Assembly: GCA_024679065.1 (NCBI GenBank)
Contig: JAGIQG010000006.1
Span: 37,262,001-37,326,000, forward strand
Reading direction: 5' to 3'
DNA length: 64,000 nt
From: Sphyrna mokarran
Taxonomy: Eukaryota
Shown piece by piece: positions 25,765 through 61,545 of this stretch; position 1 is the first letter of the stretch; each line of letters begins with the position of its first letter. The notes beneath the pieces were generated by a model, which made no database searches, was not told the DNA's origin, and was given only the letters and a program-made list of their open reading frames with translations. The position numbers were made by a program, and so were the translations under genes.

Positions 25765-25895
25765 TAAAAACAAATTACTGTGGATGCTAGAAATTGAAAC
25801 CAAAAGAAAATGCTGAAAAATCTCAGCAGGTCTATCAGCATCTGTAAGGAGAGAAAAGAGTTTACATTTCGAGTCCAGATGACCCTTGTCAAAGT
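25765..25895 (-). mobile_element. Short hammerhead-bearing repeat (Penelope pLTR-like)
   Basis: - strand reads act TTGACAA gggtc atctg gactc GAAA tg TA; shares the body ctgctgagattttccagcatttt with other copies. Confidence 0.8.
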
Positions 25896-26147
25896 TGGCT
25901 TCTTGCATCTGGAGGGAGCACTCCTGCTCCTCCCGGCCTACAGAAATTTTTATGTTTGCAATTGCTTCATTGGCCTGGCCTTCTCACTTCTCTTTAACTG
26001 CTAGGAATCCCAAACTCCACAGCTGGCATGAGTTAAATTTATAAAGTCTGGTAAAATGGAAGCTTTCTTAAAAGATTTCAGCAATTGATCTGCAATCTGA
26101 GAGCAGATTGGTTCAAAATGTTCAAAGCAGACATTCATAAATATCAC

Positions 26148-26500
26148 AGAAAGGCCTGGATAGTGTGGATGTGGAGAAGATGTTTCCATGAACAGAGGAC
26201 ATTAGGATCTGAGGACACATCCTCAGAATAAAGAGAAGGTCCTTTAAAACCGAGATGAGGGGGAATTTCTTCAGCCAGACAGTGGTGAATCTGTGGAATT
26301 TGTTGCCACAGAAGGCTTTGGAGGACAAGTCGTTGAGTGTCTTTAAGACAGAGATAGATAAGTTTTTGATTGGTAAGGGGATCAAAGATTCAGGAAAAAG
26401 GTGGAAAGATGGGTTGAGAAACTTATCAGCCATGATTGAATGGCTGAGCAAACTCAATGAGCCAAATGGCCTAATTCTGCTCCTACATCTTAAGGTCTTA
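26148..26500 (+). mobile_element. CR1 LINE 3' fragment
   Basis: MRGNFFSQTVVNLWNLLPQKALEDKSLSVFKTEIDKFL followed by 3'UTR. Confidence 0.88.
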
Positions 26501-27159
26501 TGGTTCCAACCCATTCTCCGGATTGAAATTACCTCCTGTTTCTTCTTGGTGCACTTATAGAAGAATTTTTAAAAAATACATGTTTCTTTGTGCTCTTTGA
26601 TGCCTCAGACAGAGGAAGTGTATGTACCAAGGAAGGTGTGGGATTGTATTGTTCAACAGTTTCATAATTAATAGGCTTCCTTGTTGTAAGTGTTGAAGCA
26701 GTTCAACAAATTAACTTCAAGAGGTGTGACAACTGTTGCCCAGGGAATGAACAGCCAGTGACACAATCTTGTCTAGCTAACAAAAATAGAGAAGGTTCTT
26801 TTTGGAAGCAAAATACAGTAACATGGGGCTGACATTCATGTAGAATCCTCTGACAGTTCCAGGTCTTCTGCAGCATTTGTGAAGTGCAAGATGATTTTGA
26901 AAGAACATTAAATGCAAGATGCTACTAGTTATTCCAAAGGAGTTGGAATGTCAGGTTCTTCACTAATTAATCTTAAACCTTCTGATATCAAAAAATGCTT
27001 AAAGGAATTTTGTGGGTTCCACCCACCCCATCTTTTCCCCTCATTATAACACTCTTCTTGAATGCTCAGATTTTCAAACAGTACTGTATTTTAGTCAACA
27101 ACAAGTTGGATCATCTAGTTTTCTTCTTATCTTTGCCCTTCTGAATATGCACACTGACA

Positions 27160-28448
27160 AGAGAGAAATGAATTGATTGGGGATAGTCAGCATGGTTTCG
27201 TGAAGGGTAGGTCATGCCTTACTAACCTCATTGAGTTTTTTGAGAAAGTGACCAGAGAGGTGGATGGGGGTAAGGCGGTTGATGTAGTATATATGGACTT
27301 TAGTAAGGCTTTTGATAAGGTGGCCCATGGAAGACTTCTACAGAAAATGCAGATGTGTGGAATAGAGGGTGATTTAGCTAATTGGATTAGGAATTGGCTG
27401 GCAGATAGAAGACAGAGGGTGGTGGTTGATGGGAGATATTCATCGTGGAGTTCGGTGACGAGTGGTGTGCCTCAGGGGTCTGTTTTGGGGCCCCTGCTGT
27501 TTGTAATTTTTATAAATGATCTGGATGAGGGTATTCAGGGATGGATCAGTAAATTTGCAGATGATACTAAAGTTGGTGGAGTGGTAGATAGTGAAGAGGG
27601 GTGTTTTAGTTTACAGAGTGACTTGGACAAGTTGCAGAGCTGGGCCGAGAGGTGGCAAATGGAGTTTAATGTGGAAAAGTGTGAGGTAATGCACTTTGGC
27701 AGGAACAATAAATGTGTAGAGTATAGGGCTAATGGTAGGGCTCTTAATAGTGTTGAGGAACAGAAGGATCTTGGTGTATGTGTCAATAGATCCCTGAAAG
27801 TAGGCAGTCAAGTGGATAAAGTTGTTAAGAAGGCATATGGAGTCTTAGCTTTTATTGGTAGGGGGATTGAATTTAGGAGCCGCAGCATCATGTTGCAACT
27901 GTACAAAACTCTAGTGCGGCCGCACTTGGAGTATTGTGTGCAGTTCTGGTCGCCACATTATAAGAAAGATGTGGAGGCATTGGAGAGGGTACAGAGGAGG
28001 TTTACCAGGATGTTGCCTGGTATGGAGGGCAGGTCCTATGAAGAGAGGTTGAAGGATTTGAGGTTGTTTTCGTTAGAAAGGAGGCGGCTAAGAGGGGATC
28101 TTATTGAAGCATATAAGATGATTAGAGGTTTAGATAGGGTGGACAGTGATAGCCTTTTTCCTAGGATGGAGAAAGCTAGCACGAGGGGACACAGCTTTAA
28201 ATTAAGGGGTATGAGTTATAGGACGGATATCAGAGGTAGGTTCTTTACTCAAAGAGTGATTAGGGAGTGGAATGCCCTGCCTGCAGCTGTTGTAGATGCG
28301 CCAAGTTTGGTGGCGTTTAAGAGGTTAGTTGATAAGTATATGGATGAGAAGGGAATGGTTTAGTTAGGAGGGGCATTGCTTTTTATTTTGGTCGGCACAA
28401 CATCGAAGGCCGAAGGGCCTGTTCTGTGCTGTATTGTTCTATGTTCTA
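27160..28448 (+). mobile_element. Young 5'-truncated CR1 LINE
   Basis: Uninterrupted RT-to-C-terminus frame, 3'UTR gggcctgttctgtgctgta and ttctatg tail. Confidence 0.95.
27173..28363 (+). CDS. CR1 ORF2 reverse transcriptase C-terminal part (396 aa; start is not native)
   Basis: QHGFVKGRSCLTNL, YMDFSKAFDKV, SGVPQGSVLGPLLF, KFADDTK and LEYCVQFWSP. Confidence 0.9.
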   Translation: MIGDSQHGFVKGRSCLTNLIEFFEKVTREVDGGKAVDVVYMDFSKAFDKVAHGRLLQKMQMCGIEGDLANWIRNWLADRRQRVVVDGRYSSWSSVTSGVPQGSVLGPLLFVIFINDLDEGIQGWISKFADDTKVGGVVDSEEGCFSLQSDLDKLQSWAERWQMEFNVEKCEVMHFGRNNKCVEYRANGRALNSVEEQKDLGVCVNRSLKVGSQVDKVVKKAYGVLAFIGRGIEFRSRSIMLQLYKTLVRPHLEYCVQFWSPHYKKDVEALERVQRRFTRMLPGMEGRSYEERLKDLRLFSLERRRLRGDLIEAYKMIRGLDRVDSDSLFPRMEKASTRGHSFKLRGMSYRTDIRGRFFTQRVIREWNALPAAVVDAPSLVAFKRLVDKYMDEKGMV

Positions 28449-28596
28449 AGATGGAATGTCAATGTAAAAAAGGCCAATATTTTACTTTATTCATCTTTGG
28501 TTCAAAACATAATGTTCTAACAAAATAAAATGATGATTACTACAGTTGCTTCCAAGATGTTAAACCTGAAAGGGGAAGATTCTAGGCAGTGATACA

Positions 28597-28741
28597 TGCA
28601 ACCAAAAGAGAAAGTGTTGGAAAATCTCAGCAAGTCTGGCAACATTTGTAAGGGGAGAAAAGAGCTAGTGTTTCGAGTCCAGATGATCCTTTGTCAAAGC
28701 TTCTCATCTGGTTTCAGCATCTGCAGTCATTTGCTTATATC
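28597..28741 (-). mobile_element. Short hammerhead-bearing repeat with 10-bp TSD
   Basis: TSD cagtgataca at 28587-28596 and 28742-28751; - strand reads agct TTGACAA a ggatc atctg gactc GAAA. Confidence 0.85.
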
Positions 28742-29394
28742 CAGTGATACAAGCGAGTTTTCCAAGGAAAGCCCAAACTGTCTTAAAGCCCGCAACTGAG
28801 GTTGACGGTATCTTTGATGCAGCAAAGATTTTTATAGCTCAGAACAAGCTAACTTCCTCATTTTTATGTGTTGGTTTTTTTTTTGAAATATTTTGACATT
28901 TTTGACATTGGAAACTGTTCTTTCTATGGTCTTTTTATATTGCAGGGGTATCGTAGAAAACAAACCCACTGCAGCCAGCGTAGAAACCACCTCACTTACC
29001 ATTTCCATTCTAACCAGTAGTAGACTATAATACAGTACCGTTTGGAAATCTGAGGATTCAAGAAGTGTATTATAATGAAAGGGAAAAGATATGGTGGGTA
29101 GAACGCACAAAATTCCTTTGAACGTTTTTTTGATATGAAAAGATTTGAGATTAATTAGTGAGAAGCCTGATATTCCATCTCCTTTGGAATAAGTAGTAGC
29201 ATCTCTCATGAAATATTCTTTCAAAATCATCTTATTTTCCCAAATCCATACTAATTCAAGTCACAGTAACTGACAATGGAAAAAAAAGAAGAAAATTGAA
29301 AAAGAGGAAATTAAAAAATTGAATTTCGAATATCTCTTGTTGCATCCGACAGGGTGTACCAAACTTGACCCAGCAAGACTTAATTCAAGAACTT

Positions 29395-29516
29395 TGACAA
29401 GAGCTTAGTCCATGAGCTTTGACAAAAGGTCATCTGGACTTGAAACATCAGCTCTTTTCTCTTCTTACAGACGTTGCCAAACCTGCTGAGATTTTCCAGC
29501 GTTTCCTCTTTTGGTC
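29395..29516 (+). mobile_element. Short hammerhead-bearing repeat with 9-bp TSD
   Basis: TSD caagaactt at 29386-29394 and 29517-29525; gagct TTGACAA a aggtc atctg gactt GAAA ca TC agctc. Confidence 0.85.
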
Positions 29517-30418
29517 CAAGAACTTAGCTGTCCCTAACATTTCTTTGAGATTCTAAGATAGTAAAAAACATTTTGAATAACCAATTCATACGTGTAATGT
29601 GGAGACTCGGCACATGAACAGAATGTGCTTATTTTGTGAGGTAAATATTATTGTCTGTTTAGAGTGAAGAAGTACAGAACGGGAATGATAAATGGGCTTA
29701 TTGATTGGAAGGCAAACCCCAAATATAATTCAGAAAGGCCACTCTTATTCTATCAGTCACTGCATCAGAAATCACAGAGCTCCTTGCTTTCCGCTGATTT
29801 ACTGGCCTGCCATTTTCTGTCAAGTAAGGTGAGAGCAACATCTTGTAGACTGTCATTACACACTGCCATCACTTAATAGGCCTCGAAATTCTGTTACCTT
29901 CAGTTTGCAAAGGATGTGAGGAAAGATTTTCAAGATGATTTCATGAATCATTTATGAATTTGAGATATACTACACATGATCTGATATATCAAGCTATTAG
30001 CAGGGGTAGGAATAAAGGATTGCTTCTTTTCTCGTGTTGCTAAGGAAGCCTTAACAAAACAACCAGATATATAAAATTCACATATGTTGCTCACTTCTTA
30101 GAGAAAGGTTAGGAGCAGCAGCAAACAAGAAATTAAAAGAACTTGCTTTTTAATTGTGCCTAATCATGTCCCACAGAAGAATTTTCACGTAATGTCCATT
30201 ATTTTTCATGCTGAGTAATTGTGACTGAAGCTAAAACGATGGACAAGTTGCAACCAGCAAGATTCCACAAATAATAATCAGGTGGATAGCAATAAATCTA
30301 TTTTTGGCAGTGCAGATAATAAACACTGACTGGAGATGGAATGACATTACAGGGCTGTTCCAAGGTTTGGAGCAGATAAAGCAACTGTAAGCCCCAGCAG
30401 AATAAGTCAGAGAATCAT

Positions 30419-31513
30419 GGGGCCTGATTCTGCACATTTTTTGGAGTATCGGGATGGGAGAATTGCATGTCTGCCATTTCACAGGATTCACGTATGTGCT
30501 TCCATGCATGTGTCCCACTGCCGAAGAATAGGCGCACTCATATCACACTGGAAACCGGCAGAAAGAGAGAGAAGTTATTTGAATCTGTTTTTCATGGATT
30601 TTGAATCTCATTATCAGACTCGGCATGGAGTTATCCAGGCCCAATAACGTCTCCCACACCGCCAAGAGTATTTCACCCCAGTGGGATTTGGAGAAGCTCC
30701 ACACTTGCAGGGAGCTAGCAGGAGACCCTACCGGAGTGAAGGGGGGCGCAGTTGGGGCCCTCAGAGGATCGAGCAGTGCAGGGATAATTCCCCCAGGCAT
30801 GGACACCTTGGCAATGCCAGCTTGTGCTCCTGACACTGCCAATGGATTAGGCAGTACCAACATGGCTTAGTGGTAGGGCTTAGGGGCTGTGTCTAGAGGC
30901 AAAAGGCCAGGCAAAATGGGGGCCCGGTGCAGGGGGGAGCATGAGGAAGGAGATAGGCTCTGATGCCAGTCCTCTTGGCCCTATCATAGGCAGGGTCAAT
31001 GGGTGGGCCTATTGTGGACAGGACCGAGTGGGCAATTGGTGGGGGTGGCAGTTGCCGTTGCCAATCTGCATTGGGATCAGTCATGGCTGGAGGGAGGCCA
31101 GTGGAATGGGGTGGGCTGAGAGGAGTGATCTGCAGGGGGAATCTGCCTCCCGTGGGGGGGGCTGTGCCTCCCAAGGGGGTCAGTGGAGAGAGGGGGTTTG
31201 CGGGGGTGAGGCGGGGAACCTTCACTATTTGGGGAGATTGGGACACTCCAGGATGGGATGGGATGGGGGAATGCTTGTGGGAGCTATGATGAGACCATTG
31301 GCGGGGAGGGCTGGGGGGCTAGGGGGCAGCATTGCGAGAGTTCCAGACTGGCCACAAACTGAGATCTGACAGATCAGGGCCATTGCCAGAGTTTCCCCGA
31401 GCTTTTAATCAGATTCAGAGCGTGGGAAATTCGAGTCTGAAGTGGAACTGAATAAACAGTCATGAGTTACACCAGTTTTCTCACCAATTCAGCACTTTTG
31501 GGAGAATTGCACC
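30419..31513. mobile_element. ~1.1-kb GC-rich non-autonomous DNA transposon (Harbinger-like termini)
   Basis: Imperfect TIRs ggggcctgattct / agaattgcaccc; no transposase ORF. Confidence 0.55.
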
Positions 31514-31820
31514 CATAGAATTCCTACAGGAGGCCATTCAGCCCATCAAATCTATACTGACAACAATTGCAGCCAGGCCCTATCCCCATAAACCTTCACA
31601 TTTGCTCTGATCATCCCCTGACACTAAGGGATAATTTAGCATTGCCAATCAACCTAACCTCCACATCTTTGGTGGGAGGGAAAAAAGTTGGAGCACCCAG
31701 AGGAAACGCAATAGACATAGGAAGAATGTGCAAATTCCACACAGATATGACCCGAAGCCAGGATTGAACCTGGGTCCTTGACATTGTGAGGCAGCAGCAC
31801 TAATCATTATGTCACCCTGT
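31514..31820 (-). mobile_element. V-SINE, CR1-type tail
   Basis: Tail, V-domain and tRNA-like head (gattgaacctgggtcc...gcagcactaatca) on the - strand. Confidence 0.8.
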
Positions 31821-31844
31821 CAGTAAGAGAGAAAGTGTCATTAA

Positions 31845-32197
31845 ATATGAGAAGCATGGACAGAGTGGATAGTCAGAAGCTTTTTCCCAAGATGGAAGAG
31901 TCAATTACTAGGGGACACAGGTTTAAGGTGTGAGAAGCACGGTTTAAAACAGATGTACAAAGCAGATTTCTTACATACAGTGTAATGGGTGCCTGGAACT
32001 TGTTGCTGGGGAAGGTAGTGGAAGCGGATATGGTAGAGATTTTTAAGGAGTGTCTTGACAAATACTTGAATAAGATGGGAATACAGGGATATGGTCCCTG
32101 GAAGGGTAGGGGTTTTAGTTAAATTGGGCAGCATGGTCGGTGCAGGCTTGGAGGGCCAAAGGGCCTGTTCCTGTGATATAATTTTCTTTGTTCTTTG
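31845..32197 (+). mobile_element. CR1 LINE 3' fragment
   Basis: actaggggacacaggtttaagg (TRGHRFK), 3'UTR and (ttctttg)n tail. Confidence 0.85.
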
Positions 32198-32399
32198 TAT
32201 GACAGAGACAAACACAATTGGATGAGCCTTCAGAGAAGGAGCGATCCATCAACAAGAACCAACCCTTTACAAAATCCAAGGAGGCTGATCCTGGCAGCTA
32301 TCCTGAATTGTATCCATCATGGAATTCCATGCACTCCTTAGCTCCCATTAGTTCACCCAAACTCTCCTGCCTCTGTCCCAAGCCCAATGCAACTATTAA

Positions 32400-32790
32400 C
32401 TATCTGTGTTCGCTGACCTGCTTGGCTCCTGGTTAAGCAACGCCATGATTTTAAAATTCCTTTCCTTATTTTTAAATTCCTCCCTCGCCTCTTCCCTCTC
32501 TATCTCTGCAATCTCCTCCAACCTCACAAACCTCTCATTCTATGAGCCTCCTCAGTTTTAATCACTCCATTTCTGGCCGCTGCCTTCAGTTGCCTCATCC
32601 CAGAACTTTGCAATACTTTGCCTAAGCCTCTTGTCTCTCCAAGATAATCCTGAAAACCCATCAACTTGGCCTAGCTTTTGGTCATCAGCTTTCTAATCAT
32701 CATCTTATGTGGGACAATGTTATATTTGGTTGTTAACACACAAAAGAATGCTTTCTTATGTTAATTGTTCTTTACAAAGATAAATTGTTC
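32400..32790 (+). mobile_element. Old L2 LINE 3' fragment
   Basis: ctgtgttcgctgacct...gattttaaaattc...tatctctgcaatctcctcca...gccttcagttgcc, resembling a typical L2 ORF2 end. Confidence 0.55.
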
Positions 32791-32835
32791 TCTATGTTGC
32801 TTCTAAGCCTCCTGAGGTTACAGTTTCAGATGCTT

Positions 32836-33160
32836 CATAGAATCCCCACAGTGCAGAAGGAGGCCATTTGGCCCATTGAGTTTTCGAAAGAGCATCTTTC
32901 CCAGGCACTATCCCTATAATCCCACATATTTACCCACTAATCTCCCAAACTGCTCATCTTGAGACACTAAGGGATAATTGAGCATGGTCAATCCATCTAT
33001 CTACACACCTTTGAAATATAGGAGGAAACCGGAGCACCCTGAGGAAACCCATGCAGACGCAAAGAGAATGTGCAAACTCCACACCGACAGTCACCCAAGA
33101 CCCGAATCGAACCCAGGTCCCTGACGCTGTGAGACGGCAGTGCTAACCACTGTGCCACCT
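32836..33160 (-). mobile_element. Full-length V-SINE, CR1-type tail
   Basis: Head cagtgctaaccactgtgccacc, B box gaatcgaaccc, V-domain and tail. Confidence 0.9.
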
Positions 33161-34011
33161 AAGGTTATAGATTAATACTTCCTGTGAGCACTTGGCAGAA
33201 GAAGACCTTTAACTGTTTAGAATAAAGAAATGGAAGGACAAAGATGCTTAAATATTGAAACCCAGGCCTTAGGTTTATGTGATTGAAGGTCAATGTTGGA
33301 GTGATTAAAAGTGGGGAGACTCAAAAGCATGCCCATCAAATGGTAGACTGAAGAGATTGGGGGGAGTGGTAAGGAGCAAATCATGAAATCACCTTAAAGT
33401 AGGAGTATAATAAAATCTATTTGTATATCAGGAAAATTAAGCTTTCAGATTAGTATGGCAGCTTAATTTCCATCAACTAATACTTGAATTGTCAACAGTG
33501 TGATTTTTAGCAGCCAATCTGAAATACAAGATTCACTTTAATTAGCCTCAAGAGAGTTCTGCTCAATTGCAATGTTTAATTAGCATTTAACAGAATTTAA
33601 TAGTGATTAATTAAGAAAATATGAGTCACTAATTTAATGTGTGGAGCAAAATTTTCAGTGTCAATATAGAAATGTGCAATTGAAGGTTCTGACTCCAGAA
33701 TTACAATATACATTTCAGTGAAGCCATAGTAGATTTGAATGTAGCACATCCATTGGGAGTTATTATTTGTATTTTTCAATGTAATATAGAAGTTCAAATT
33801 TCATATCATGGTGCAGCAGAAGTCTGAGCAGCAATATTATTTGTCATTTTAGAAGAAAACCTGCATTTTAATGCCCATTTTGCTCATTTCCTCTCTGTTC
33901 TCTACCATACATGGACTGCAGCGTGGCAACAACAAAACAGCTGCAGTTGGACAGTTGTGCAACGTGAATGCATAAGACAAGCCTGGAGATGTTTGGAGGT
34001 CATGGTGTCAT

Positions 34012-34370
34012 GAAATCATTACAGCACAGAGAGAAACCATTCAGCCCATCTAGTCTGTATCAACTCTATATACTGCAATCCAGTCAGTCCTATTCCCCCA
34101 TTCTATCCTTGTATTCCTGAAAGTTTACTTCCCTCAAGCACATCTAACTTCCTCTTCAAATCATTCATCATCCTCACTTCCAATACCCTCATAGACAGTA
34201 ACAAGTCATTAGCATTCGCTGTGTAAAAATGTACTTACTCACACCTCCTCCAACATCTTGTGCCCACACCTGAACATTTTGTTCTCCAGTATTTGTTTCA
34301 TTATCTAATCAAAACAGTTATCTTTGACTGCCTTGCTCACCTATCAAATCTCCCTTCAATCTCCTTTGTC
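34012..34370 (-). mobile_element. Old CR1 3' fragment
   Basis: acagcacagagagaaaccattcagcccatc 3'UTR with decayed ORF2 end. Confidence 0.55.
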
Positions 34371-34533
34371 GAAGAAATGATTGTGTGGGATTTTTGCCAA
34401 GTCTTTATACATTGAGAATATTTCTACTGGAGAGTTAGTTAGTGTTTATGTTGAGGAGGACACAGGGGAGTATCTCAGTTGTACCTCTTTATGGTCCAGT
34501 CAAAAACATCTCTTGAGCAACAAAGGAAAGATA

Positions 34534-34658: not shown

Positions 34659-34739
34659 TTAAACTCTGCCTGCCTGTGGAAAGGATCATCCTTGAAATAT
34701 ACCCACAGATGTCCCATTCTTTTCCAAGGGACTTCAATT

Positions 34740-39407: not shown

Positions 39408-41051
39408 CCAATTCGGTTTTCATGTCTGCTGACGACACCACCATACTAGGTCGGATCTCAAACAATGTGGCAATGCATTTTGGAAGGTCTAATACAGACA
39501 GGAAATATATAGTAAATGGCAGAATCCTTAAGAATATTGAAAGGCAGAGGGATCTGGGTGTACAGGTACACAGGTCACTGAAAGTGGCAACACAGGTGAA
39601 GAAGATAGTCAAGAAGTCATACGGCACGCTTGCCTTCATTGGCTGGGGCATTGAGTTGAAAAATTGGCAAGTTATGTTTCAGCTTTATAGAACTTTAATT
39701 AGGCCAATCTTGGAATATAGTGTTCATTTCCAGTTGCCACACTACCAGAAAGATGTGGAGGCTTTGGAGAGGGTGCAGAAACGATTTACCAGGATGTTTC
39801 CTGGTATGGAAGGCATTACCTATGAGGAGGGGTTGGAGAAACATAGTTTGTTCTCACCAAAATGACCGAGGTTGAGGGGTGACCTAATAGAAGTCTACAA
39901 GATTTTAAGGGGCATGGGCAGAATGGATAGTTAGAAGCTTTTGCCCAGGGTGGAAGTATCAATTACATAGGGGTATAGCTTTAAGATGTAAGGGCAAGAT
40001 TTAAAGGAGATGTACGAGACATGTTTTTTACACAAAGGGCGGGTGCTTGGAATTTGCTGCCAGGAGAGGCAATGGAAGCAGATAAGATAGTGAGTTTTAA
40101 GGGGCATCTAGACAAATACATAAATAGGATGGAAATTGAGGGATATGGCCCCCAGGGGTTTTAGTCAAGTCAGGCAGCATAGTCGGTGCAGGCTTACAGG
40201 GCCACAGGGCCTGTTCTTGTGCTGTAATTTTCTTAGTTATTTGTTCTTTGCTCTTTCTTCAGTAACAGGACAGAGTACAGGACTGAGATAGAGAATCTGG
40301 TGAATTGGTGCAGCAACAATAATCTCTCTCTCAATGTCAACAAAACAAAGGAGATTGTATTGACTTCAGAAAGCTTAAAGGAGAATGTGCTCCTGTCTAC
40401 ATTAACAGGGATGAAGTAGAAAGAGTTGAGAGCTTCAAGATTTTAGGTATCCAGATCCTGGTTTGCCTATTCTGACACTATAGTTAAGAAAGCCCACCAA
40501 TGCCTCTACTTTCTCAGAAGACTAAGGAAATTTGGTATGTCCACTATGACTGTCACCAAATTTTACAGATGCAATATAAAACATATTCTTTCTGGTTGTA
40601 TCACAGCTTCATATGGCTTCGGCTCTGCCCAAGACTACAATAAACTACAAAGGATTGTGAATGAAGACTAGTCCGTCACTCAAACTACCCTCCCACTTAT
40701 TGATACTATCTACACTTCCCACTGCCTCAGAAAAGCAACCAGCATAGGTAAGGACTTCATGCACTCTGGACATACTCTCTTCCACCTTTTTCCATTGAGA
40801 AAAAGATACAAAAGTCTGAGAACACGTACCAACCAACTCAAAAATAGTTTCTTTCCCGCTGCTGACAGATTTTTGAATGGACCTACCTCACATTAAGTTG
40901 ATCTTTCTCTACATCCTAGCTATGATTGTAACACTACATTTCACATTCTTTCCTTTCCTTCTCCATATATGGTATGCTTTATATAGTGTGCAAGAAACAA
41001 TACTTTTCACTGTACACTAATACATGTGACAATAATAAATCAAATCAAATC
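39408..41051 (+). mobile_element. Rex/Babar LINE 3' fragment split by a CR1 insertion
   Basis: ADDTTILGRISN ends at ~39465 and resumes as gacagagtacaggactgagatagagaatctgg (TEYRTEIENL) at ~40265; (aaatc)n tail. Confidence 0.88.
39466..40250 (+). mobile_element. CR1 3' fragment nested in the Rex/Babar element
   Basis: MHFGRSN...QRDLGVQVHRSLK...YQKDVEALERVQKRFTRM, then 3'UTR and ttgttctttg tail. Confidence 0.9.
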
Positions 41052-42843: not shown

Positions 42844-43654
42844 TGAGCTTCTGTCCTACCTGATAAAAGAACAGGGACTTCCAGGAATTACTGAACTGTA
42901 TCAAATGAATTGTAATCCAATCTGGAACTACACCCGTTCTGCCTGTAGCTGTGAATGTCACAGTTACACTAAATGTCTGGCACTTTTTATTCATCACAAG
43001 AGATTCCTAAGGATTATCCGGCGCACTGATTAGTATTACACATAACTATTTACACAGTATAAATGAAGTATCATTCCACAGAGTAGCAGAGTAATGGAGA
43101 GCTGGAGCAATAGTTTGTCAGACTTTAATTCTACGCAATGATACCTTGCTGAAATTCCTACTCTTTAGGCAACTGCTCTAGTATGAGGTAGGACATCACT
43201 TCCCCAATCAGTGGTTGCCACTACTGGTGCTGCAGTTAGAGGTGAGGAGGTGACACTCAGTGATGGACCTTATAAACCTGAAACCTCTCCAAAGGAAGGC
43301 TGACAGGCCCTGGAGAGAGGAGTGGCGACATGTTGGACAGGCGAGGAGGAAGGAACTGTTGGGAGGGTGGTGGGAGCTTTGGCATAGGGGAGTCTGGGAG
43401 GATGTAGCTCTCCTTTCACTGACCACCAGCCACAGGGTTCAACTTACTGGGTTACATATTGGGCACAGGCCTTTCCCACCACCCGTTAAACTGGTGTGGT
43501 GATGGGATAAGGCTCATAATTGGATATTAATTTCCCACTTAAGGAGCACAATTGGGTTATGGGCTGGTGGCAACCCATCTGATTCCTCCCTCACCATCCA
43601 TGCGCAGACTGGCAACGGCTATGTTGTCAATAGCACGACACCCTAATTTATCAG

Positions 43655-43758
43655 ACAAAGCTCTGACGGAGGGTCAGCCAGACTCGAAATGTTGGCTCCA
43701 TTCTCTCTCCACAGATGCTCAAAGACCTGCAGAGATTTTCCAGCGCTTTCTGTTTTTG
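43655..43758 (+). mobile_element. 104-bp hammerhead-bearing insertion with perfect 15-bp TSD
   Basis: TSD accctaatttatcag at 43640-43654 and 43759-43773; agct CTGACGG a gggtc agcca gactc GAAA tg TT ggct. Confidence 0.9.
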
Positions 43759-44094
43759 ACCCTAATTTATCAGTTTACCCATTCATTTTCCTATCCATGG
43801 GTGGCCTGTGAAATTCAACCCATGTTTATCTCATTTTCACTGCAGCTGCGTACACTTTCTATGAAATAAGAGGCAGGGATAAACAAAACCTAGGAGGGAT
43901 GAACTCAATTAGAGTTACTATTAGGGGCACCTACACCAGCGACTGTAACCCTTCCCCCAGGAACTCACAAGGTTAAACAATTGCACTGTTGCCTCATCAA
44001 CTGGTGTTAGCATTTCAATTTCTCACTGTTCAATATCCAGTTTTGGGTGGTCTGTTGAGTAGAAACTACCTGGAGTTTGTCTTCCTTCACATCA

Positions 44095-49250: not shown

Positions 49251-49810
49251 AGATTGCTACCTCTCACTGCAATACATTTTCAATATCTATTATGTAACTT
49301 TATCATGATATTTCATTCCTCAATAAGATTTAAATAAACAAAAATGGGATATAGGCCAATAGACAAAAGATGCTGGATAGAGCTGGATAAGATTGGAGTC
49401 AATGGAAAAGACTCCTGAGAATCACGTGCAGGATAAAACAGGACACTGATTTACTATGAACCTACTACACACTCCTCTCGTAGCAATTTCTCTCCACAAA
49501 GTCTATTGACAGTGAAATTCCATCAGCAATAGAATTCCAATCATGAATCCACCCTCTGTTACCAGATAATTATGGAGGACAATGACCATCTAGCCCCGCT
49601 CATCTCTTCTATCCAGAATGACATAAAAACATGTGCAGTAGGAACAGAGTTAAACCATTCGGCCCCACGTGCCTGTTTAGTAATTTGTTAACATTGCTAA
49701 CATTATACCAGTGATTGCAACTCAGAAATGTTTTATTAGTTGATTTGGGACATTGTGAAAGGTGTTATCCATTTTGTCTTTTTTTCACTATGCAGTGTGC
49801 ACTATGCACT

Positions 49811-49924
49811 ATAATTATCCTTAGAGAATCAACATTGTGCCTCCAATTTCACCATTACTACATCATAGTATCTGTAGTAATGGTGAAATTGGAGGCACAA
49901 TGTTGATTCTCTAAGGATAATTAT
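49811..49924. repeat. Perfect inverted repeat with 52-bp arms and 10-nt spacer
   Basis: 49811-49862 is the exact reverse complement of 49873-49924. Confidence 0.97.
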
Positions 49925-50288
49925 TCACAGAGTGATCAATGTTAGGAAAGGAGCTACAAAGAAATCTTTACATTTACAACCGGCAAGTCAGCCCAATATC
50001 CTGTTCCCTGTGCTGTCTTACATTGCTCCCTTATTCATTCTAAATAAGGAGAAGAAACATCTCCCCATTCACCATGTTACCCTTAAACCAATGCTGTGGC
50101 AAGGTGACATTGAAATCTCCAAATTTTAGCTTCACATGTTGTTTTATCCATTTCCAGCTCCACAGAGGTTTCTCATGCCTATTATGGACTACAGATCAAA
50201 GATTGAATATGATTACATATTACCCAAAGATGGTTTAATTATTTTTAACATTTCTCTTTCTGTCTAAGCTTCTGTCCTGGGTTAGGGT

Positions 50289-50890: not shown

Positions 50891-50892
50891 GA

Positions 50893-51063: not shown

Positions 51064-51156
51064 CATGAATTGGATACTTAACTGTCTTTTTTATACACAT
51101 GAGAGTAATGCAGCACCAATTACTGTCAAACTTGGGAAAGTATAGTACAGTACACT

Positions 51157-51255
51157 AAGGTAAAAACAAAATACTGTGGATGCTGGAGTCAAATCCTGAC
51201 TTGAAACAAATGGTTTCAGATCTGCTGAGATTTTCCAGCATTTTCTTTTTTTTGT
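51157..51255. mobile_element. Deleted/inverted copy of the hammerhead-repeat family
   Basis: aaaatactgtggatgctgg...gacttgaaac...ctgctgagattttccagcatttt; diverged TSD at 51141-51156 and 51256-51271 (13/16 identical). Confidence 0.7.
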
Positions 51256-51359
51256 TACAGTATTGTACACTCAGACAGAGCTGTCATTAAATATATGTAT
51301 ACACTATAGGAAACACAATTTGAAACCAGCAAGAAGGCAAAACAAGATCTGAATAGAAA

Positions 51360-52745: not shown

Positions 52746-54430
52746 TTTGATTTGATTTTTTTACTGTCACATGTACGAGTATACAGTGTTGTTTTTGCGT
52801 ACTATACAGACAAAACATATCGTACATAGAGAAAGAAAGGAGAGAGTGCAGAATTAATGTCACAATTATAGCTAGGGTGTCAAGAAAGATCAATGTAGTG
52901 CGAGGTAGGTCCATTCAAGAGTCTGACGGCAGCAGGGAAGAAGCTGTTCTTGAATCAGTTGGTACATATCCTCAAACTTTCATATATTTTTCCCAAAGGA
53001 AGAAAGTACAAGAGAATATATGGATGGTGCATGGGATCCTTAATTATGCTAGTTGCATTTCCAAGGTGGCAGGAAGTGTAAACAGATTCAAATAGAAAGA
53101 ATGCACCTGCAAAGGTTGGTGAGAGTTATAGTGGACATGGCAAATTTCTTTAGTCTTCTGAGAATGTAGAAGCATTGATGGGCTTTCTTAACTATAGCAC
53201 CAGGATGGAGGGACTGGGACAGCTTACTGAAGATCTGGACACCAAAAAATATGAAGCTATTGATGTAGATTGGGGCTTGTCCTTCGATGACTATTTTGTT
53301 GACATTGAGGGAGAGATTATTGGCATTGCACCAGTTCACCAGATTCTCTACTTTTTTTGTATTCCATCTCATGATTGTTTGAGATCCAATTCAGTATACC
53401 TCAGGATTGAGCTCATTGGGGTGGGATGCATTGGAGCCAACAATTTTACATGCCTTCATTTTGTCATGCAGTCCTTGCCATAGTCAATGTGGCTGGCCTG
53501 AGACTATAGCTTGGTCCGGTATTTTCTTTTGCCATCTTTGATGGATCTCCTTCCATCATATCTGACTTTCTTGTACAGGTCGGGGTTGCCTGATTTGAAT
53601 GCCTCAGACCTCCAGCAAGCAGTGGATATCCCTGTTTATCCATGGTTTCCGACTGGAAACACATGGATTTGCTTCTTTGGCACACAGTCTTTTACAGACT
53701 AATAAAGTCAGTTACTGTAGTAGGTATTCATTCAGGCTGTTCATAGAGTTTTTAAATATTGATCAGTCTACTGACTCTAAGCAGTCCCACAGGAGATCAT
53801 CCAATTCCTCTGACCAATATTGCATGACTTTTTTAACAGGTTCTCCATTTCAGTTTTTGCTTGTAAGTCAGGAGCAGAAGCACAATCTTGTGGTCTGATT
53901 TGCTAATGTGTGGATGGGCGATAGAGTGATAGACAGGTTTGATATTTGTGTAGCAGTGTCTAGGGTGTTTGAGTCTCTGGTGGAACGTGAGACATCCTGG
54001 TGGTATCTTGGTAGGACACTCTTGAGCTTGGCCTGACTGAAGTCTCCAGCCATGATGAACAAGGCCTCAGGATGTTTCGTCTCAAGGCTATTTGTAATGA
54101 TATATATTTCCAGTGTGATCTTCACATCTACATGAGGTTGGATGTAAACTTAGTCAAGATAACAGAGGTTAGCTCCTTTGGAAGGTAGTAGGGATGGCAT
54201 TTCTTGGTCTAGGAAGCAGAAACCCACAAATGTTGCTACGTTTGGCACCACAAGATGTTGATTAGGAAGCAGACCCCACCTCCCCTAGCCTTGCCTGAGG
54301 CTGTAGTACAGTCCAGTCATTGAATTGACAAGCCTTCTGGTAGTAGGACACAGTTCAGTGAATCAGGCTTGAGCCATGTCTCTGTGAAATAGAGTACACA
54401 GCAATTCCTCAGTTCTCTTTGAAAAATGAG
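52746..54430 (-). mobile_element. Rex/Babar LINE, internally deleted (APE part plus 3' part)
   Basis: CCVLYFTETWL and EALFIMAGDFSQAKLKSVLP (APE domain); VENLVNWCNANNLSLNV and IVKKAHQCFYILRRLKKF; (aaatc)n tail. Confidence 0.85.
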
Positions 54431-54526
54431 TCTGACATTCTGGGTAGGATAATAAACTGCTTCCTACATTGCATCCAAGAGTTGGGAATCTCGATCAACC
54501 ACTTGCTAAGACCAGTAGATTTCTTA

Positions 54527-54720
54527 ACATAGAACATAGAACATAGAACACTACAGCACAAACAGGCCCTTCGGCCCACAAGTTGTGCCGAACACATCAA
54601 AACCTACCCAGCCATAGACCTATCTATAACCCCCAATCCCATTGGATCCCATATACTCATCCAGAAGTCTTTTAAAAGACCCCAGCGAGTTCGCCTCGAC
54701 CACCACCGACGGCAGCCAAT
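54527..54720 (-). mobile_element. CR1 3' tail fragment
   Basis: (aacatag)x3 and VVVEANSLGSFKRLLDEYM. Confidence 0.85.
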
Positions 54721-54849
54721 TTCGATTCTTCTTTCGATTGCTGAGAAAAGTACCTCCTGATTGCCCCCAGTGGTAATACCAGTTATTGAATCTGATTGGT
54801 TCCCTTGCTCTATGTCCACCATCAACCCGTAAAACCTTCAATTTGCGTT

Positions 54850-56600
54850 TGTACATTATTCCTTTAAACACATCTGAGATTTCAACAAAATTAAGGAGAA
54901 TGCAGGGATAGTTTGTCAATACAATAAGAGTAAAAGAGTAACTAAGGAAAGAGTAGGGTCTATAAATGACCAAAAAGGTAACTTGTGTGTGGAGGTGAAG
55001 GATGTGGGTATTGTTCTTAATTAATACTTTGCATCAATCTTCACAAAAGATGGGAATAATGCAGATATCACACTGCAGAAATATTGGATATAATAAACAT
55101 AGGAGGAGTGTAATTGTTACAGAGATTAGCATCCTTGAAAGTGGATAATTCACCGCGATCAGATGAAATGGACCCAGGTTATTAAAATAAACCAGACAGG
55201 AAATAGTGGAGGGCCTGATCATTGTTTTCTAATCCTCACAGAATGTCAGAGGACTGCAGTCCTGTTCATGTTGCGTCTTTATTGAAAAAGGAAGAGAGGG
55301 ATATACCAAATGATTGTAGGCTAGTTGGTGTGGCCTTGGTAGAGGAAGAATGATTGGAAGCATAAACTTACACTTAGGAAGGCGCGGATTAATCAAGGAC
55401 TGTCAGCATAGATTTGTTAAGGGGAGGTCATTTCTGACAAATTTGATTGCATTTTCTGAGCAAGTAACAAGGGCGATTGATGAGGGTAGTATAGTTAATG
55501 TGTTCTACATTGATTTTAACAAGACATTTTTCAAGGTGCCACATACCAGACTGGTTAAAAACACAAAAGCCCATGGGACTCAGGGGCAGATACAAAATTG
55601 CTCAGTCACAGGAAACAAACAGTATTTGTTTATGGGTGTATTTGTAACTGGAAGGTTCTTTCCAGTGGGTTCCACAAGATTCAAGACCAGGCTCTTGCTT
55701 TTCACAGATATTAATGATTTGGATGTAAATGGAGGGGGGATGATCAAGAAGTTTTCAGATGACACAGAAATTGGCCGCATGGCTGATAGTGAAGAGGATC
55801 GCTGTAAACTGCTGGAAGGTATCAATAGACTGGTCAGTGAACATAATAATTCAACCCAGAGAAATGTGGGTGTCTCATTTGGGGAGATAAAGCAAAGAAA
55901 GGATTGCACAATAAATGGGAGGAATACTGAGAGATGTAGAGAAAGTGAGGGACTTTAGAGTAAATATCTACAGATTCCCGAAGGTAGAGGATAGATTGAT
56001 GAGGTGACCGAGACGGCAAATGGAATCCTTTCATTTATTATCTTGCGCAAAGAGGTCATGCTGAAATGATATAAAACATTAGTTAGGCTGCAGCTTCAAT
56101 ACTGAGTGCAGTTCTGGTCATCTCATTACAGAAAATATGTAATTACATTAGAGAGGGTGCAGAGGAGATTCATCAGGATGTTACCAGGACTGGAAAATTG
56201 CAGCTATGAGAAATGATTGGATAAGTTGGGGCTGTTCTCAGTGGAACAGAGGAAACTGAGAGGAGATTTAACTGAGATGTACAAAATTGTTCATTCACTT
56301 TTTTCAACAGCTAAGGGGCAAAGGTTTAAAGCGATTGGTTGAAAGATTAGAGGGGAGATGGGGATAACCTTTTTCATCCAGAGGGTTGTGTGATGTGGAA
56401 CTCACTATCTGAAAGGGTAGCAGAGACAGAAAGGTTCAATTCATTTAAAAGGTGTGTGGATATGTACCTGAAGTGCTGTAACCTGCAGATCTACAGACAA
56501 AATGCTCAGAAGTGGGACTAACTGAGTGGCTCATTTTTCAGCTGGCACAGATATGAGGGACCAAGTGGCCTCCATCTGTGCGATAAACAGTCTATGACTT
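54850..56600 (+). mobile_element. Degraded CR1 LINE
   Basis: QHRFVKGRSFLTNLIAF and KFSDDTEIG; many stops and frameshifts. Confidence 0.85.
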
Positions 56601-57147
56601 GATTATATCACACAGATGTGCATCACACTTTCTGATCAGCTCAGCGATACAAAATCCTTCCGTTAAAAGCTATGCTTCGACTGAGTGTCAGTCAGGGAGT
56701 CCGTCCTTCAGGGTTGCCTTCTGGCCTTCACCTACACAATTCCATCTCCACTCAGAAATATATTAATATCAGGGCCTTGTCAGATTTCCGAGCCCTGCTG
56801 ACCATATTACTGAAGGTTTCATCACAACATCAAGAGCTTATAATTGCCCTGCCAAATCAAAATGCCTTTCTTCCAATACTCTATAACTAATAAAGCAAAG
56901 TGCCAAAAACTGAAAAGAACTCACCATTCTTCTTTAAAAGTCCTTCTAAATTTTCTGTTACAGTCACAGAAGTGTTCCAGTGAACTGTCAATCCTGAAGC
57001 TCCACAAAAATCATGGAGAGTTAGCAACTGGGTCAGGCCAATCTTATCTAGATTCATAAAATAACTGGGTTGTATTTAAATGGACAGGTTTTTTCAACTG
57101 GCTAGTTTCTGGAGGAACTCTGGTCAAGCTTATAAATTATGTAAGGG

Positions 57148-57532
57148 CATAAGAACATAACATAAAAACTCGGAGAGGAGTAGGCCATCTGGCCCCTCGA
57201 GCCTGCTCTACCATTCAATAAGATTATGGCTGATCTTTTTGTGGACGCAGTTCCACTTATCTGCCCATTCACCACAACTCTTAATTCCTTTACTGTTCAA
57301 AAAGTTATTATCCTTGCCTAAAAACTTTCAATGAGGTAGCCTCAACTGCTTCACCTGGACAGGGAATTCCACAGATTCACAACCCTTTGTGTGAAGAAGT
57401 TCCTCCTCAACTCAATCCTAAATCTACTTCCCCTTATTTTCAGGCCCTAGTTCTAGTTTCACTCACAAGTGGAAACAACTTCTCTACTTCTATCTTATCT
57501 ATTCCCTTCATAATCTTATATGTTTCTATAAG
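57148..57532 (-). mobile_element. CR1 3' fragment
   Basis: cataagaacataa tail and ggagtaggccatctggcccctcgagcctgc 3'UTR. Confidence 0.8.
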
Positions 57533-57591
57533 AGGTGGATTGGATGTAAGGTGATCCTGTTTTTCCCCAGGGAATGAGTAGACCTGCAGAT

Positions 57592-57858
57592 TGGGCAGTT
57601 TGTGGCACAGTTAGCATTGCTGCTACTTGGGTTCAGTTCCTGGTTTGGGTCACTGTCTGCGTGGAGACTGCACATTCTCCCCATATCTGTGTGGGTTTCC
57701 TCCAGGTGCTCCGGTTTCCTCCCACAGTCTGAAAGACATGCTGGTTAGGTGCATTGACTCGAATAGATGCCAGACTGTGACAACTAGGTGAATTTCAGAG
57801 TGACTTCATCACTGCGCTAATGTAAACCTTACTTGTGACTAATAAATGAGCTTTACTT
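57592..57858 (+). mobile_element. V-SINE with alternative (Rex/Babar-like) tail
   Basis: V-domain followed by ttacttgtgactaataaa. Confidence 0.8.
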
Positions 57859-58230
57859 GAATGCTGATTCACTGTCAATCTGCAAGTGAAAGCTGAACCC
57901 CTTTCTGAATGGGCTGATTGACTTGTATGAGACTCTATAACCTTTCTCCTATATTGCTTGCAGCATTGTCCAGATTAACGGTGATTCCTGAAGGGCGCAC
58001 AACCCAAACCATTCAGATCTCCTGTTCTACTTCTGATAGCCCACAGGTATCAGGGAGCAATTTTTCCATTGCTTTTCCTTAACTGGCTTGGCTTTTTATA
58101 CTCTCACCTTCCCAGGAGATTACATTGTGCTGTGAGGGTAGGAGATCTTTGTATCCTCACGGATGAGACATCCAAATGTTTAGAACGGACTAGATAGACT
58201 AGATTTTTTCCTCCAATATGACCTTTCTAT

Positions 58231-58430
58231 GGATAAATGCAAATTACTGTGGATGCTAGAATCTGAAACCAAAAGAGAAAATGCTGGAAAACCTCAGCGA
58301 GTCTGGCAGCATCTGAAAAGAGAGAAAAGAGCTGACATTTCGAGTCCAGATGACAGCTTTTACAAAGGGTCATCTGGATCTGAAACGTCAGCTCTTACAA
58401 AGCTCTTACAAAGAGCATTTTCTCTTTTGG
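58231..58430. mobile_element. Inverted double hammerhead-bearing repeat with 12-bp TSD
   Basis: TSD tgacctttctat / tgatctttctat at 58219-58230 and 58431-58442; opposed motifs at ~58328-58353 (-) and ~58354-58394 (+, ending GAAACGTCagctc). Confidence 0.85.
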
Positions 58431-59547
58431 TGATCTTTCTATATATTGGTTTGTGAATGCTGCAACTTCAGAGTTTTGCAGCATTTTGCTTCCTTCCATG
58501 TACTTGGGATAGAGAACTCCCATCACCTTATTTACGGCATGACTCAGCCCTGCCATCGCTATTCATTAGTTAGAGTTGATGGATTTAATAATAATTTTAA
58601 CTTTGTACAGCTCCAAAAATGTTATGCTTTCTCTTTGTGCTCTGGGAAATTGTAGATCCGATAGTTTCTGTAAAACACAGAGCTAAATACGTGAAGGACT
58701 GCGGCTCAGTATCAAATATTGTTTTGCCACCCTCCTGTACATCATCTTGGAAAGTTTCATTGCATTCATGGTGCTACGTAAATGTAAGTTGTTGTGGCAG
58801 TTGATCTCATCTAGCCTGACAGCAATTGAGAGCTTACGTGAGTGCCACTGAGGGCCTTAAGAAGCCCAAAACTTTACTGGGGAGAAATAATTGATCCTGG
58901 AGGAGACGTACTTCACAAAGTGCTTTTAACAAAAGAGGGGAGCTCTGCCAACTAATGCAGGAGCAGGAGTCAGCAGTCCCCACTGCAGTATTTATTGGTA
59001 TGAAGGGAATATTCTGTCTCATGCTTTGTAGTGATGGATTATTGCTGACAGTTACCAGGAATGGAAATTGGGATGCGGAATGGCCCTTTATTCATCAGTT
59101 AATACTTTTCACGGGAAAGTTAAAGAATTCAAGTTGGGCATTACAATAAGACCAATAAAGTCCAATAGAAAGTTGTTAGCTTTCCTGAGGTTTAGGACAC
59201 AATAGGCGGTGCAGCCCTGAGTTCCTAAAGTAATCCCTTTAACTCCATCAACAGGAACTCCTTCGAGCACAGACTGCATATACAAAGGAACCTGTCAATC
59301 GATGTCTCTTTTGTTGGAAGGATTACCCATGTGATTCTTCATTTGAGTTTGTTTTGTGCATTGGTGCCTAGGAACCTCTAGGAAGGAAAGGAGAATAATC
59401 TGCACATTAACAACTGAGCACTCCCAGCTTTCTCTTCTCATTTCTGATTTCTAGCATCTGCAGTATTTTGGTTTTGTTAAGTTTGTCTTGCCTGCCTTGG
59501 TCAAGATAGTGACCTTCTTGTGGAACTAATCTGCAGTTCTAGAGTGA

Positions 59548-60225
59548 GGACATAGAACATAGAAAAACTACAGCACGAACAGGCCTGTCAGCCCACAAGT
59601 TGCCCCGATCATATCGCTACCTACTTACAGGCTTATCTCAATCCTATTAAGTCCCATGTACTCATCCAGAAGTCTCTTAAAAGACCCTATCGAATTTACC
59701 TCCACCACCACTGACGCAACAGATTCCACTCACCCACCACCCTCTCAGTGAAAATCTTACACCTGATATTGCCTCTGTACCTACTCCCCAGTTCCCCAAA
59801 CCTGTGTCCTTTCGTGGCAACTATTTCAGCCCTGGGAAAAAGCTTCTGAGAATCCACCCAATCAATACCTCTCAACATCTTATAAATCTCAATCAGGTCA
59901 CCTCTCGTCCTTCGTCTCTCCAAGGAGAAAAGACAGAGCTCCCTCAACCTATCCTCATAAGGCATGCCACCCAATCCAGACAACATCTTTTGTAAATCTC
60001 CTCTGCACCCTTTCTATGGCTTCCATATCCTTCCTGTAATGAGGCAATCAGAACTGAGTACAGTACTCCAAGTGGGGTCTGACCAGGGTTTTATAAAGCT
60101 GCAGCATTATCTCCTGACTCCTAAACTCAATCCTTCAATTGAGGAAGGCCAGTACATCCTCTATCTGCGAGGCCAATTTAAAAGTCCTAGGGACCCGGAC
60201 CCCAAGATCCTTCTGATCCTCTACA
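59548..60225 (-). mobile_element. CR1 3' fragment
   Basis: YEDRLRELCLFSLERRRTRGDLIEIYK; catagaa tail units. Confidence 0.88.
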
Positions 60226-60297
60226 TTCAGCATGAGTGCTGAATCCATCTATAAGATATGACTCAATGTTCTAAGCTCTTTCCTATTTGCTTGTTGT

Positions 60298-60705
60298 TCA
60301 TAGAATCCCTACTGCTCAGAAAGAGACCATTCAGACCATTGAGTCTGCATTGATAACAAGACCACGCAGCCTGTATTCATATAACCCTTGACACTAAGGG
60401 GAAATTAGCATGGCTAATCCATTTAACCTGCATATCTTTAGAATGTGGGAGGAAGCTGTAGGAGGAAAAATTGCACACCAGAATGATAGGGAGTGGGATA
60501 GCTTGATCTTGGGTTTCAGATTAGCTTGGCACAACATCGAGGGCTGAAGAGCCTGTACTGTGCTATGTTTAAACTAAAGCACCTGGAGAAAGCCCATGCA
60601 GACATGGGAAAAACATGCAAACTCTACACAGACAGTGACCCAAGGCTGGAATTGAATGCAGGTCCCTGGTGCTGTGAAGCCAAAGCACTAACCACTGTGC
60701 CACCA
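60298..60705 (-). mobile_element. V-SINE interrupted by a + strand CR1 tail (~60478-60570)
   Basis: The V-domain is split by ggcacaacatcgagggctgaagagcctgtactgtgc. Confidence 0.75.
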
Positions 60706-61180
60706 CTGCTGTCCCAAGCCTGCTGCAGATATCTTGAATTACACTGAAGACAGCACAACATCCGAGCACATTACTCCATTTTATGTGGGACTTTCACTCC
60801 AGATTCTTCAATTGGTATGTAAATGAGTTCATCCAAAACATTATGGTGGATTCAACTCTGGATGGAATTGGCAGGTGAAACTCCAAACTTAAGAGTGCAA
60901 ATTCCAAGCAATGCACCACCCCCCCCTCAACATTTGGAATCCTGGAGTCTAAATATTTCTGATGCTGATCTATAGTTCTGTTTGCACATTTTCCTGTCAT
61001 TTCATCTGAAGTCTCTTCACCATCAAACTATAATTTGACATTTCCAAGTTAAGTTCCCCTGAGCTTGAGTTTTCCATTTTCCTTTCTATTCTAAACACCG
61101 AACCTGGTGATGTTGTTGCTCCCAAACTTTCAGATCACATACTTCTTTTTCATCGCTATTCCAAAGCAGTTCAAGTAAAT

Positions 61181-61545
61181 AAGAACAAAAAATGCTGGAT
61201 AAACTCAGGCAGCATCTGTGGAGAGAGAAACATTTCGAGTTCAATATGGCTCTTCTTCAGAACACAGCTCTTGACCACAGTTGTCCCGGAGAATAATCAT
61301 TTTGGACTTGAAATGTTAACTCTGTCTCATTCTCCACAGATGCTGCCAGCCCTGCTGAGTGTTTCCAGCACTTCCTTGGGCACATTTTTCCATTCCGCTC
61401 ACCACAGGAATCAGAGTGGGCGGGGACAGACCATAGAAAGACCATTTGACCTCGGGTGGGATTTTCCAATTTCGGGGCATTGGCAGGTAGAAAATCCCAT
61501 CCCTGTTTTTATTTCAGATTTCCAGCATCCTCAGTATTTGGCTTG
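61181..61545. mobile_element. Inverted hammerhead-bearing repeat with a nested MITE
   Basis: - strand reads CTGAAGA a gagcc atatt gaactc GAAA at ~61230-61260; opposed decayed copy at ~61285-61370; family 3' part resumes at 61504. Confidence 0.75.
61378..61503. mobile_element. ~125-bp MITE
   Basis: Termini gggcacattttt / aaaatcccatccc; homologue of 34534-34658. Confidence 0.65.

Follow-up and report, generated by a model that had tools for sequence, protein, structure and literature searches.

We analysed a 64,000-nt stretch of the genome of the shark Sphyrna mokarran (GCA_024679065.1, contig JAGIQG010000006.1, positions 37,262,001 to 37,326,000 of the forward strand; hereafter the window), in which a preliminary description had reported seven small related elements and a fragment near 59430. 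These are a real family: a self-blastn of the window joins the eight loci into one repeat group, and a profile derived from 39 copies in the genome finds 13 arm matches in the window and none in a reversed 600-kb control. They are the end-pieces, here called stubs, of the pseudo-long terminal repeats (pLTRs) of two sister Penelope-like elements (PLEs), A and B. Spans, strands and identities were measured for each locus against working consensuses of the two families (about 3.3 kb, with a hammerhead ribozyme motif at 0-39, the end of the tail at +137 and the first ATG near +163), and model positions below refer to these.

Single arms of family A lie at 25764-25894 on the minus strand (119/134 identical to consensus A; model +2 to +136), with the tail, and at 29415-29515 on the plus strand (93/101; 0 to +101), without it. 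The hammerhead at the 5′ end of the former has a 1-nt deletion, and the latter has 20 extra bases in front (from 29395). A tail-less family B stub occupies 43659-43758 (plus strand; 89/100; 0 to +100), with a hammerhead core of the C3-G8 type and 4 extra bases in front (from 43655). The target site duplications (TSDs) of these copies are 13 bp with one mismatch (25753-25765 and 25896-25908), an exact 9 bp (29386-29394 and 29517-29525) and an exact 15 bp (43640-43654 and 43759-43773), respectively. At 59414-59475 (plus strand; 49/64) there is an old fragment with the 3′ body and tail and no hammerhead; comparison of its flanks revealed no direct repeat.

The other loci have two arms. At 28597-28701 (minus strand; 95/105; 0 to +105) a tail-less family A arm that begins at the first base of the hammerhead is joined to an inverted tail-only arm at 28701-28741 (plus strand; about +89/98 to +137), and an exact 10-bp TSD encloses both (28587-28596 and 28742-28751). 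The family A insertion at 58232 consists of a tailed arm at 58232-58354 (minus strand; 113/123; +14 to +137) and a tail-less arm at 58355-58431 (plus strand; 0 to +101 with an internal deletion), flanked by a 12-bp TSD with one mismatch (58219-58230 and 58431-58442). A family B insertion at 51158-51260 pairs a tail-only arm (51158-51190, minus strand) with a short tail-less arm (51206-51260, plus strand), and most of the hammerhead is missing; its 11-bp direct repeat (51139-51149 and 51259-51269; one mismatch, score 8) stands 8 nt off the left edge. An insertion of an older sister family at 61177-61549 has a tail-less arm at 61177-61261 (minus strand) and a tailed arm at 61303-61376 and 61503-61549 (plus strand) that is interrupted by a later repeat; its flanking repeat is only 6 bp, which is chance level. 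The earlier view of these loci as tiny related inserts with no fully intact copy is borne out, and the direct repeats it reported are present (9-15 bp), at six loci rather than five. What it overlooked is that half of the eight loci carry two arms arranged head to head.

Parent elements and abundance

Upstream of the module, copies of both families contain about 430 nt of pLTR, then a GIY-YIG endonuclease frame and then a reverse transcriptase (RT) frame, which answers the proposed check of whether such copies ever reach a PLE open reading frame. The family B parent was traced from relatives of the element at 43655, whose common upstream sequence encodes the end of a GIY-YIG protein; 30 of the 51 matches to its upstream stretch were examined, and these terminate in the same module, several of them reaching the RT. 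The family A parent was found by a pattern search, the sequence upstream of copy L010 having matched an unrelated repeat instead. Among the 30 of 40 family A RT-region matches that were examined, six loci read from the pLTR through the tail into the coding region, and two of the six (L417 and L428) start exactly at the first base of the hammerhead. The RT/GIY-YIG frame of the parents opens near +163, past the tail.

Over their last kilobase, families A and B share 72% identity. The RT of consensus A carries DKG, GxxMG and YIDD motifs and is 35% identical over 465 amino acids (E 1e-84) to the Pfam RVT_1 protein of another PLE in the window, which lies at 10132-12251 on the minus strand and has Pfam RVT_1 and GIY-YIG matches in two frames; a natural frame, L409, matches the same RT with an E of 4e-23. 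The GIY-YIG domain has two cysteines between its motif halves and is 27-36% identical to the GIY-YIG protein that Pfam recognises in the window (E 5e-10 at best). A CX4CxxC linker between RT and endonuclease in both consensuses fits the pattern CX2-5CxxC, and by the linker criterion of PMC8557442 A and B would be of the Neptune or Nematis type. The remaining features are those of endonuclease-bearing PLEs: a PLE-type RT, a C-terminal GIY-YIG domain, a pLTR or partial tandem, inverted copies, a tail of 30-40 bp and TSDs of variable length. The element at 10132-12251 was considered as the parent of the stubs and rejected on its RT identity and on its 3′ end, which has no significant DNA match to A or B; the suggestion that the stubs come from a different PLE family was thus correct.

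In a survey of 60 evenly spaced 10-kb stretches of the 2.77-Gb genome, the profile search found 38 arms in 35 loci. This extrapolates to about 160,000 related loci, older sister families included; arms scoring at least 60 bits would number about 55,000. Genome-wide there are 1495 exact matches to the 36-nt body pattern of family A and 1041 to that of family B. For the analysis of insert ends we used 120 matches to 36-nt patterns of the 3′ body, namely the first 70 of family A and the first 50 of family B in contig order; two insertions are counted twice among these 120 rows. TSD scores of at least 9 were obtained for 27/120 copies, compared with 0.6% of shuffled flank pairs, and the TSDs enclose the whole insertion unit, including both arms where there are two (9-18 bp, mostly 12-15). 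Insertion by target-primed reverse transcription with a Penelope-type RT, as originally suggested, is supported.

A fixed 5′ end downstream of a TATA box

The 5′ ends are concentrated at one point. Of the 120 copies, 53 end at -2 to +5, 37 at +6 to +50, and 30 further upstream, to -908; the hazard is 0.080 per nt in the peak and 0.003-0.022 in all other bins. Constant truncation simulated with the same aligner places 6-7% of ends in the peak, compared with 44% observed, and the peak persists in copies that have no inverted arm (25/59). In contigs of four other organisms, compared with a different aligner, the main 5′ junction falls at the same base (31, 24, 34 and 36 contigs), with unrelated flanks (agreement 0.37-0.38) and with 3′ junctions at the end of the tail; these junctions are genomic and do not show a transcription start. 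The idea that the stubs are extreme 5′ truncations of a PLE therefore holds for their origin and fails for their ends, which stop at a fixed point and not at random.

The sequence TATAWA occurs at exactly -30 in 16/30 long A copies and 16/25 long B copies, and no other such word is present in the 1-kb consensus of either family, although the two are 72% identical. A TATA box typically sits about 30 nt before the transcription start, and the fixed 5′ end is likely to be where the RNA of the element begins. There is precedent for a start inside the pLTR in the Penelope of Drosophila virilis (PMC2377424), and Pen2a of Adineta vaga has a putative TATA box in its pLTR (PMC3846280).

A possible second cluster of 5′ ends close to the cleavage site (+33 to +38) was considered and rejected: 8/120 ends fall at +35 to +42 and 10 at +27 to +34, which is the background hazard, and several ends near +33 to +38 are internal deletions between short direct repeats. 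Stalling at RNA structure was also rejected, as copying would then be expected to halt where the hairpin ends on its 3′ side (+39) and not at 0. At three loci (L419:2466, L428:2425 and L411:2122) RT coding sequence is fused directly to a module starting at 0, as if cDNA that had run off the 5′ end had jumped to an internal position of the RNA; at L417 a tail-less arm also lies inside the RT.

Two 3′ ends and the one-tail rule

The 3′ ends fall into two groups, at about +91-108 (tail-less) and about +128-138 (tailed), and these two points are likely to be where copying starts. In a PLE of the lizard Anolis studied in vitro, the tail is delimited by two internal RT start sites, cutting and extension take place on both target strands, and the ribozyme does not have to cleave (PMC11167929).

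An inverted match lies within 700 nt in 61/120 rows. Requiring the arms to be at most 70 nt from the junction and to reach +85 or beyond leaves 42 rows (19 dropped), or 40 insertions once duplicates are removed. Exactly one arm is tailed in 39 of the 40, and the lone exception exceeds the tail cut-off by a single base. Since single-armed copies are tailed in 28/59 cases, independent pairing of arms would give one tail in about half of the insertions (expected about 50%; binomial p 3e-11). Most junctions are not palindromic. Perfect palindromic junctions do exist (19 exact 26-nt matches genome-wide), and of 15 of these 19 insertions inspected by eye, 14 obey the one-tail rule.

In 18/40 pairs the 5′ extent of the tail-less arm exceeds that of the tailed arm by more than 10 nt, which rules out either arm as a fold-back copy of the other. 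Free tailed arms end early in 12/25 cases and free tail-less arms in 0/15 (p 0.001). The counts favour two separately primed arms made from a sense template, and the early-stopping tailed arms would fit two primers on one RNA, with the enzyme on the tail side trailing. One locus (L068:5243-5642) has three arms within 400 bp, a two-armed family B insertion beside an older tailed copy.

The hammerhead

The motif had been described as a minimal type I hammerhead with a palindromic stem III, as found in Penelope pLTRs, and this layout is what we find, spanning six of the eight loci. At the family level the core boxes, helices I and II and a palindromic 15.2-16.2 pair are present, and both helices appear in the predicted fold. 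An Rfam scan of the window at E up to 5 gave four unrelated matches and no hammerhead, so the case for a ribozyme is built on the anatomy of the motif and on changes that are paired between the families: the core is U3-A8 in A and C3-G8 in B, and helix I pairing is preserved through an A-to-G change. Because the core pair was exchanged as a pair with helix I still formed, we suspect that the fold was under selection in the active parents. The original ribozyme call thus stands on anatomy and covariation and finds no support in Rfam.

In the genomic copies the hammerhead is decaying, and most copies lack some core or stem III bases. Among rows that cover it, the core is intact in 19/47 A and 4/29 B copies, and the core together with the stem III CG in 2/47 and 0/29. 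The stem III CG at +31/+32 has become CA in many more copies than it has become TG (A, 30:9; B, 19:6), whereas the CG at +26/+27 shows no such skew; the bias may be a context effect or may reflect source variants unable to pair as a dimer.

Other elements in the window

The PLE at 10132-12251 is 5′-truncated, with its RT and GIY-YIG frames split by a frameshift, and is inserted into decayed LINE-like RT sequence; a decayed hammerhead-like motif at about 9870-9930 belongs to it. Elsewhere in the genome this family is found inserted inside family A modules (L186 and L194), in L194 50-60 nt past the hammerhead start. A LINE fragment at 27158-28363 on the plus strand holds an open RT frame of 401 amino acids (Pfam RVT_1), and decayed relatives of it lie at about 9089-9814, 39500-40040, 55400-56200 and 59800-60130. 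A near-perfect 118-bp hairpin at 49809-49926, which matches Rfam MIR7807 on both strands below the gathering score, is probably a small inverted-repeat element.

Discussion

The stubs are probably run-off cDNAs made from two internal RT start sites, with the inverted forms primed from both cut strands. In this scenario the module, which is the pLTR end of A and B elements of about 3.3 kb, would carry a promoter whose TATA box at -30 starts transcription at the first base of the hammerhead. By analogy with the anole element, the protein may nick both target strands about 12-15 nt apart, a spacing taken from the TSD lengths, and then start cDNA synthesis at about +137 or about +100. An ordinary transcript has no more than 100-137 nt on the 5′ side of these sites, so the usual product would be a stub ending at 0, and longer copies would need a read-through RNA whose downstream pLTR is used. 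If both nicks prime, each at a different site (+100 for one, +137 for the other) and probably on the same RNA, the arms would point outwards and only one would have a tail. The hammerhead was copied uncut and has decayed since, and the stubs are most likely inert.

A more specific version, which we consider as apt to be wrong as right, is a fixed two-site twin priming by a dimeric RT-endonuclease on a single RNA. The enzyme at +137 would trail the one at +100 and both would run off the capped 5′ end; the usual product would be a strong-stop-like stub, whole elements would come only from read-through RNA, and the hammerhead, left uncut at the start of the mRNA, would have a job other than shaping the template.

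Several observations weigh against this account. The start at 0 is deduced from the ends of genomic insertions, the peak is 8 nt wide, and the copies that end inside the module (37/120) or continue upstream (30/120) depart from it. Copying a cap is expected to leave an extra G. Such a G is not enriched at the junctions (8/20 ends exactly at 0, and 3/20 and 4/23 in the context sets); C is commoner than G at -1, which looks like junction microhomology. Position 0 also reads as a splice acceptor (pyrimidines and AG), and in D. virilis an intron ends at this edge of the hammerhead (PMC4209133), with a TATA-less start further upstream (PMC2377424). The in vitro study saw no difference between strands in the use of the start sites (PMC11167929), so the rule of one site per strand is something that we infer. 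An intact parent copy was not found among the loci examined. Pfam gave no match on three natural parent fragments (two decayed RTs and a GIY-YIG piece of 115 amino acids), and a PDB search of the decayed natural fragments gave no useful match; the identity of the parental RT rests on its similarity to the window's Pfam-confirmed RT.

The splice-acceptor reading leads to a rival in which the parents and the fixed 5′ end are the same and the end is set by RNA processing, either at a splice acceptor or by a trans ribozyme cut just before the palindromic AGCU. The pyrimidine tract and AG at the edge in both families, the D. virilis intron and the lack of a cap-G excess all speak for it. We regard it as unlikely: the AG itself is retained in 20 of the 53 peak copies, the unrelated junction flanks include no shared upstream exon, several copies have TSDs directly adjoining the element, stem III would offer a trans cut just one base pair, and the presence of TATAAA at -30 in A and B alike would have to be coincidental. 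For the inverted arms, the published view is self-priming (snap-back) at a palindrome, with endonuclease resolution leaving a one-sided tail (PMC3846280, PMC8557442). The self-complementary AGCT and the perfect palindromic junctions agree with this, yet the non-palindromic majority does not, and in the 18 pairs noted above each arm has sequence that the other lacks, the tail-only arms at 28701 and 51158 included. Snap-back already fails for about half of the pairs, and as a general explanation it is quite improbable.

Ordinary random 5′ truncation, with the peak as an alignment artefact, would suit a class in which heavy 5′ truncation is typical (PMC8557442), and a quarter of the copies do form a graded length series. 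The simulation and the recurrence of the junction in four other organisms with another aligner refute it unless both aligners share an unseen bias, and this reading is very improbable. Equally far-fetched, in our estimation, is a retrozyme-like non-autonomous family that moves as a self-cleaved, possibly circular RNA with a Penelope RT in trans. It would account for small, non-coding, hammerhead-bearing sequences in very many copies, and animal retrozymes do derive from pLTRs (bioRxiv 10.64898/2026.07.22.740005). Retrozymes are defined as tandem units yielding circular RNA (PMC7229834; bioRxiv 10.64898/2026.07.22.740005), whereas no tandem array of ribozyme units occurs among the 120 rows or in the window; a second same-strand arm lies within 1.5 kb in 10/120 rows, with one pair adjacent. 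The inserts end at 0, +100 and +137 and not at the cleavage site (+34/35), the two-armed forms vary in length from copy to copy, and few copies retain the core with the stem III CG. The continuity of the module with RT and GIY-YIG genes, together with the lack of arrays, argues against a free-standing short RNA moved in trans, one of the two readings offered in the preliminary description.

A and B show no structural difference from the Neptune and Nematis PLEs in what is described in PMC8557442, sharing the RT followed by a C-terminal GIY-YIG, the CX2-5CxxC linker, the cysteines inside GIY-YIG, the pLTR, the heavy 5′ truncation, the inverted 5′ copy and a 30-40 bp tail that is often one-ended. 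Our counts add to that description the fixed 5′ end 30 nt after a TATA box and the near-strict one-tail rule. The motif resembles the minimal hammerheads of PLE pLTRs (PMC4209133) in its short helix I, the extra base before helix II, G10.1-C11.1, the palindromic 15.2-16.2, the U3-A8 core variant and the occurrence of single and opposite-strand paired motifs. That work proposes cleavage and circles as templates, whereas the ends of A and B inserts ignore the cleavage site. Poseidon of Anolis carolinensis (PMC11167929) likewise has two adjacent internal RT start sites bounding the tail, both strands cut and extended, and uncleaved RNA as template; it belongs to another clade, and its reading frame begins inside the hammerhead, whereas that of A and B begins after the tail. 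The inverted arms and 5′ run-off are left unaddressed in the Poseidon study.

The two-armed layout has a parallel in Pen2a and Pen3a of A. vaga (PMC3846280), which share the head-to-head inverted pLTR, the one-sided tail (with TSDs of 8-10 bp), the putative TATA box, junction palindromes and solo pLTRs. They were explained by self-priming on an antisense template, a fold-back that 18/40 A and B pairs do not fit; a two-primer model yields the head-to-head arrangement from a sense template, which the account in PMC3846280 reaches only via an antisense one. Metazoan non-LTR retrozymes (PMC7229834; bioRxiv 10.64898/2026.07.22.740005) are similarly small, non-coding and related to pLTRs, with a type I hammerhead. 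They are tandem, with canonical ribozymes and circular RNA, unlike the dispersed single or inverted stubs with their minimal, decayed ribozymes and coding parent.

In L1 twin priming, a second primer from the other target strand yields an inversion. The second site there depends on fortuitous annealing, and the arms are free of overlap, whereas in A and B the two sites are fixed and overlapping arms are frequent. The short cDNA would correspond to retroviral strong-stop DNA, which ends at the 5′ end of the RNA.

The PLE class, the ribozyme, the truncation, the inversion and the one-sided tail are already published, the last two with a tentative explanation by antisense self-priming or endonuclease resolution (PMC3846280, PMC8557442). 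Our literature search, which key older papers and supplements fell outside, found no account of fixed-site twin priming, strong-stop or 5′ run-off for Penelope, and no description of shark PLE hammerheads.

From the perspective of genome biology the stubs are ordinary debris, to be annotated as Penelope ends and not as short interspersed elements, miniature inverted-repeat transposable elements or retrozymes. The ends of so many copies preserve an ample natural archive of PLE insertion, and the counts yield precise predictions for the Penelope system already established in vitro. If the fixed-end reading is correct, it would explain the long-known mirror-image layout of the class.

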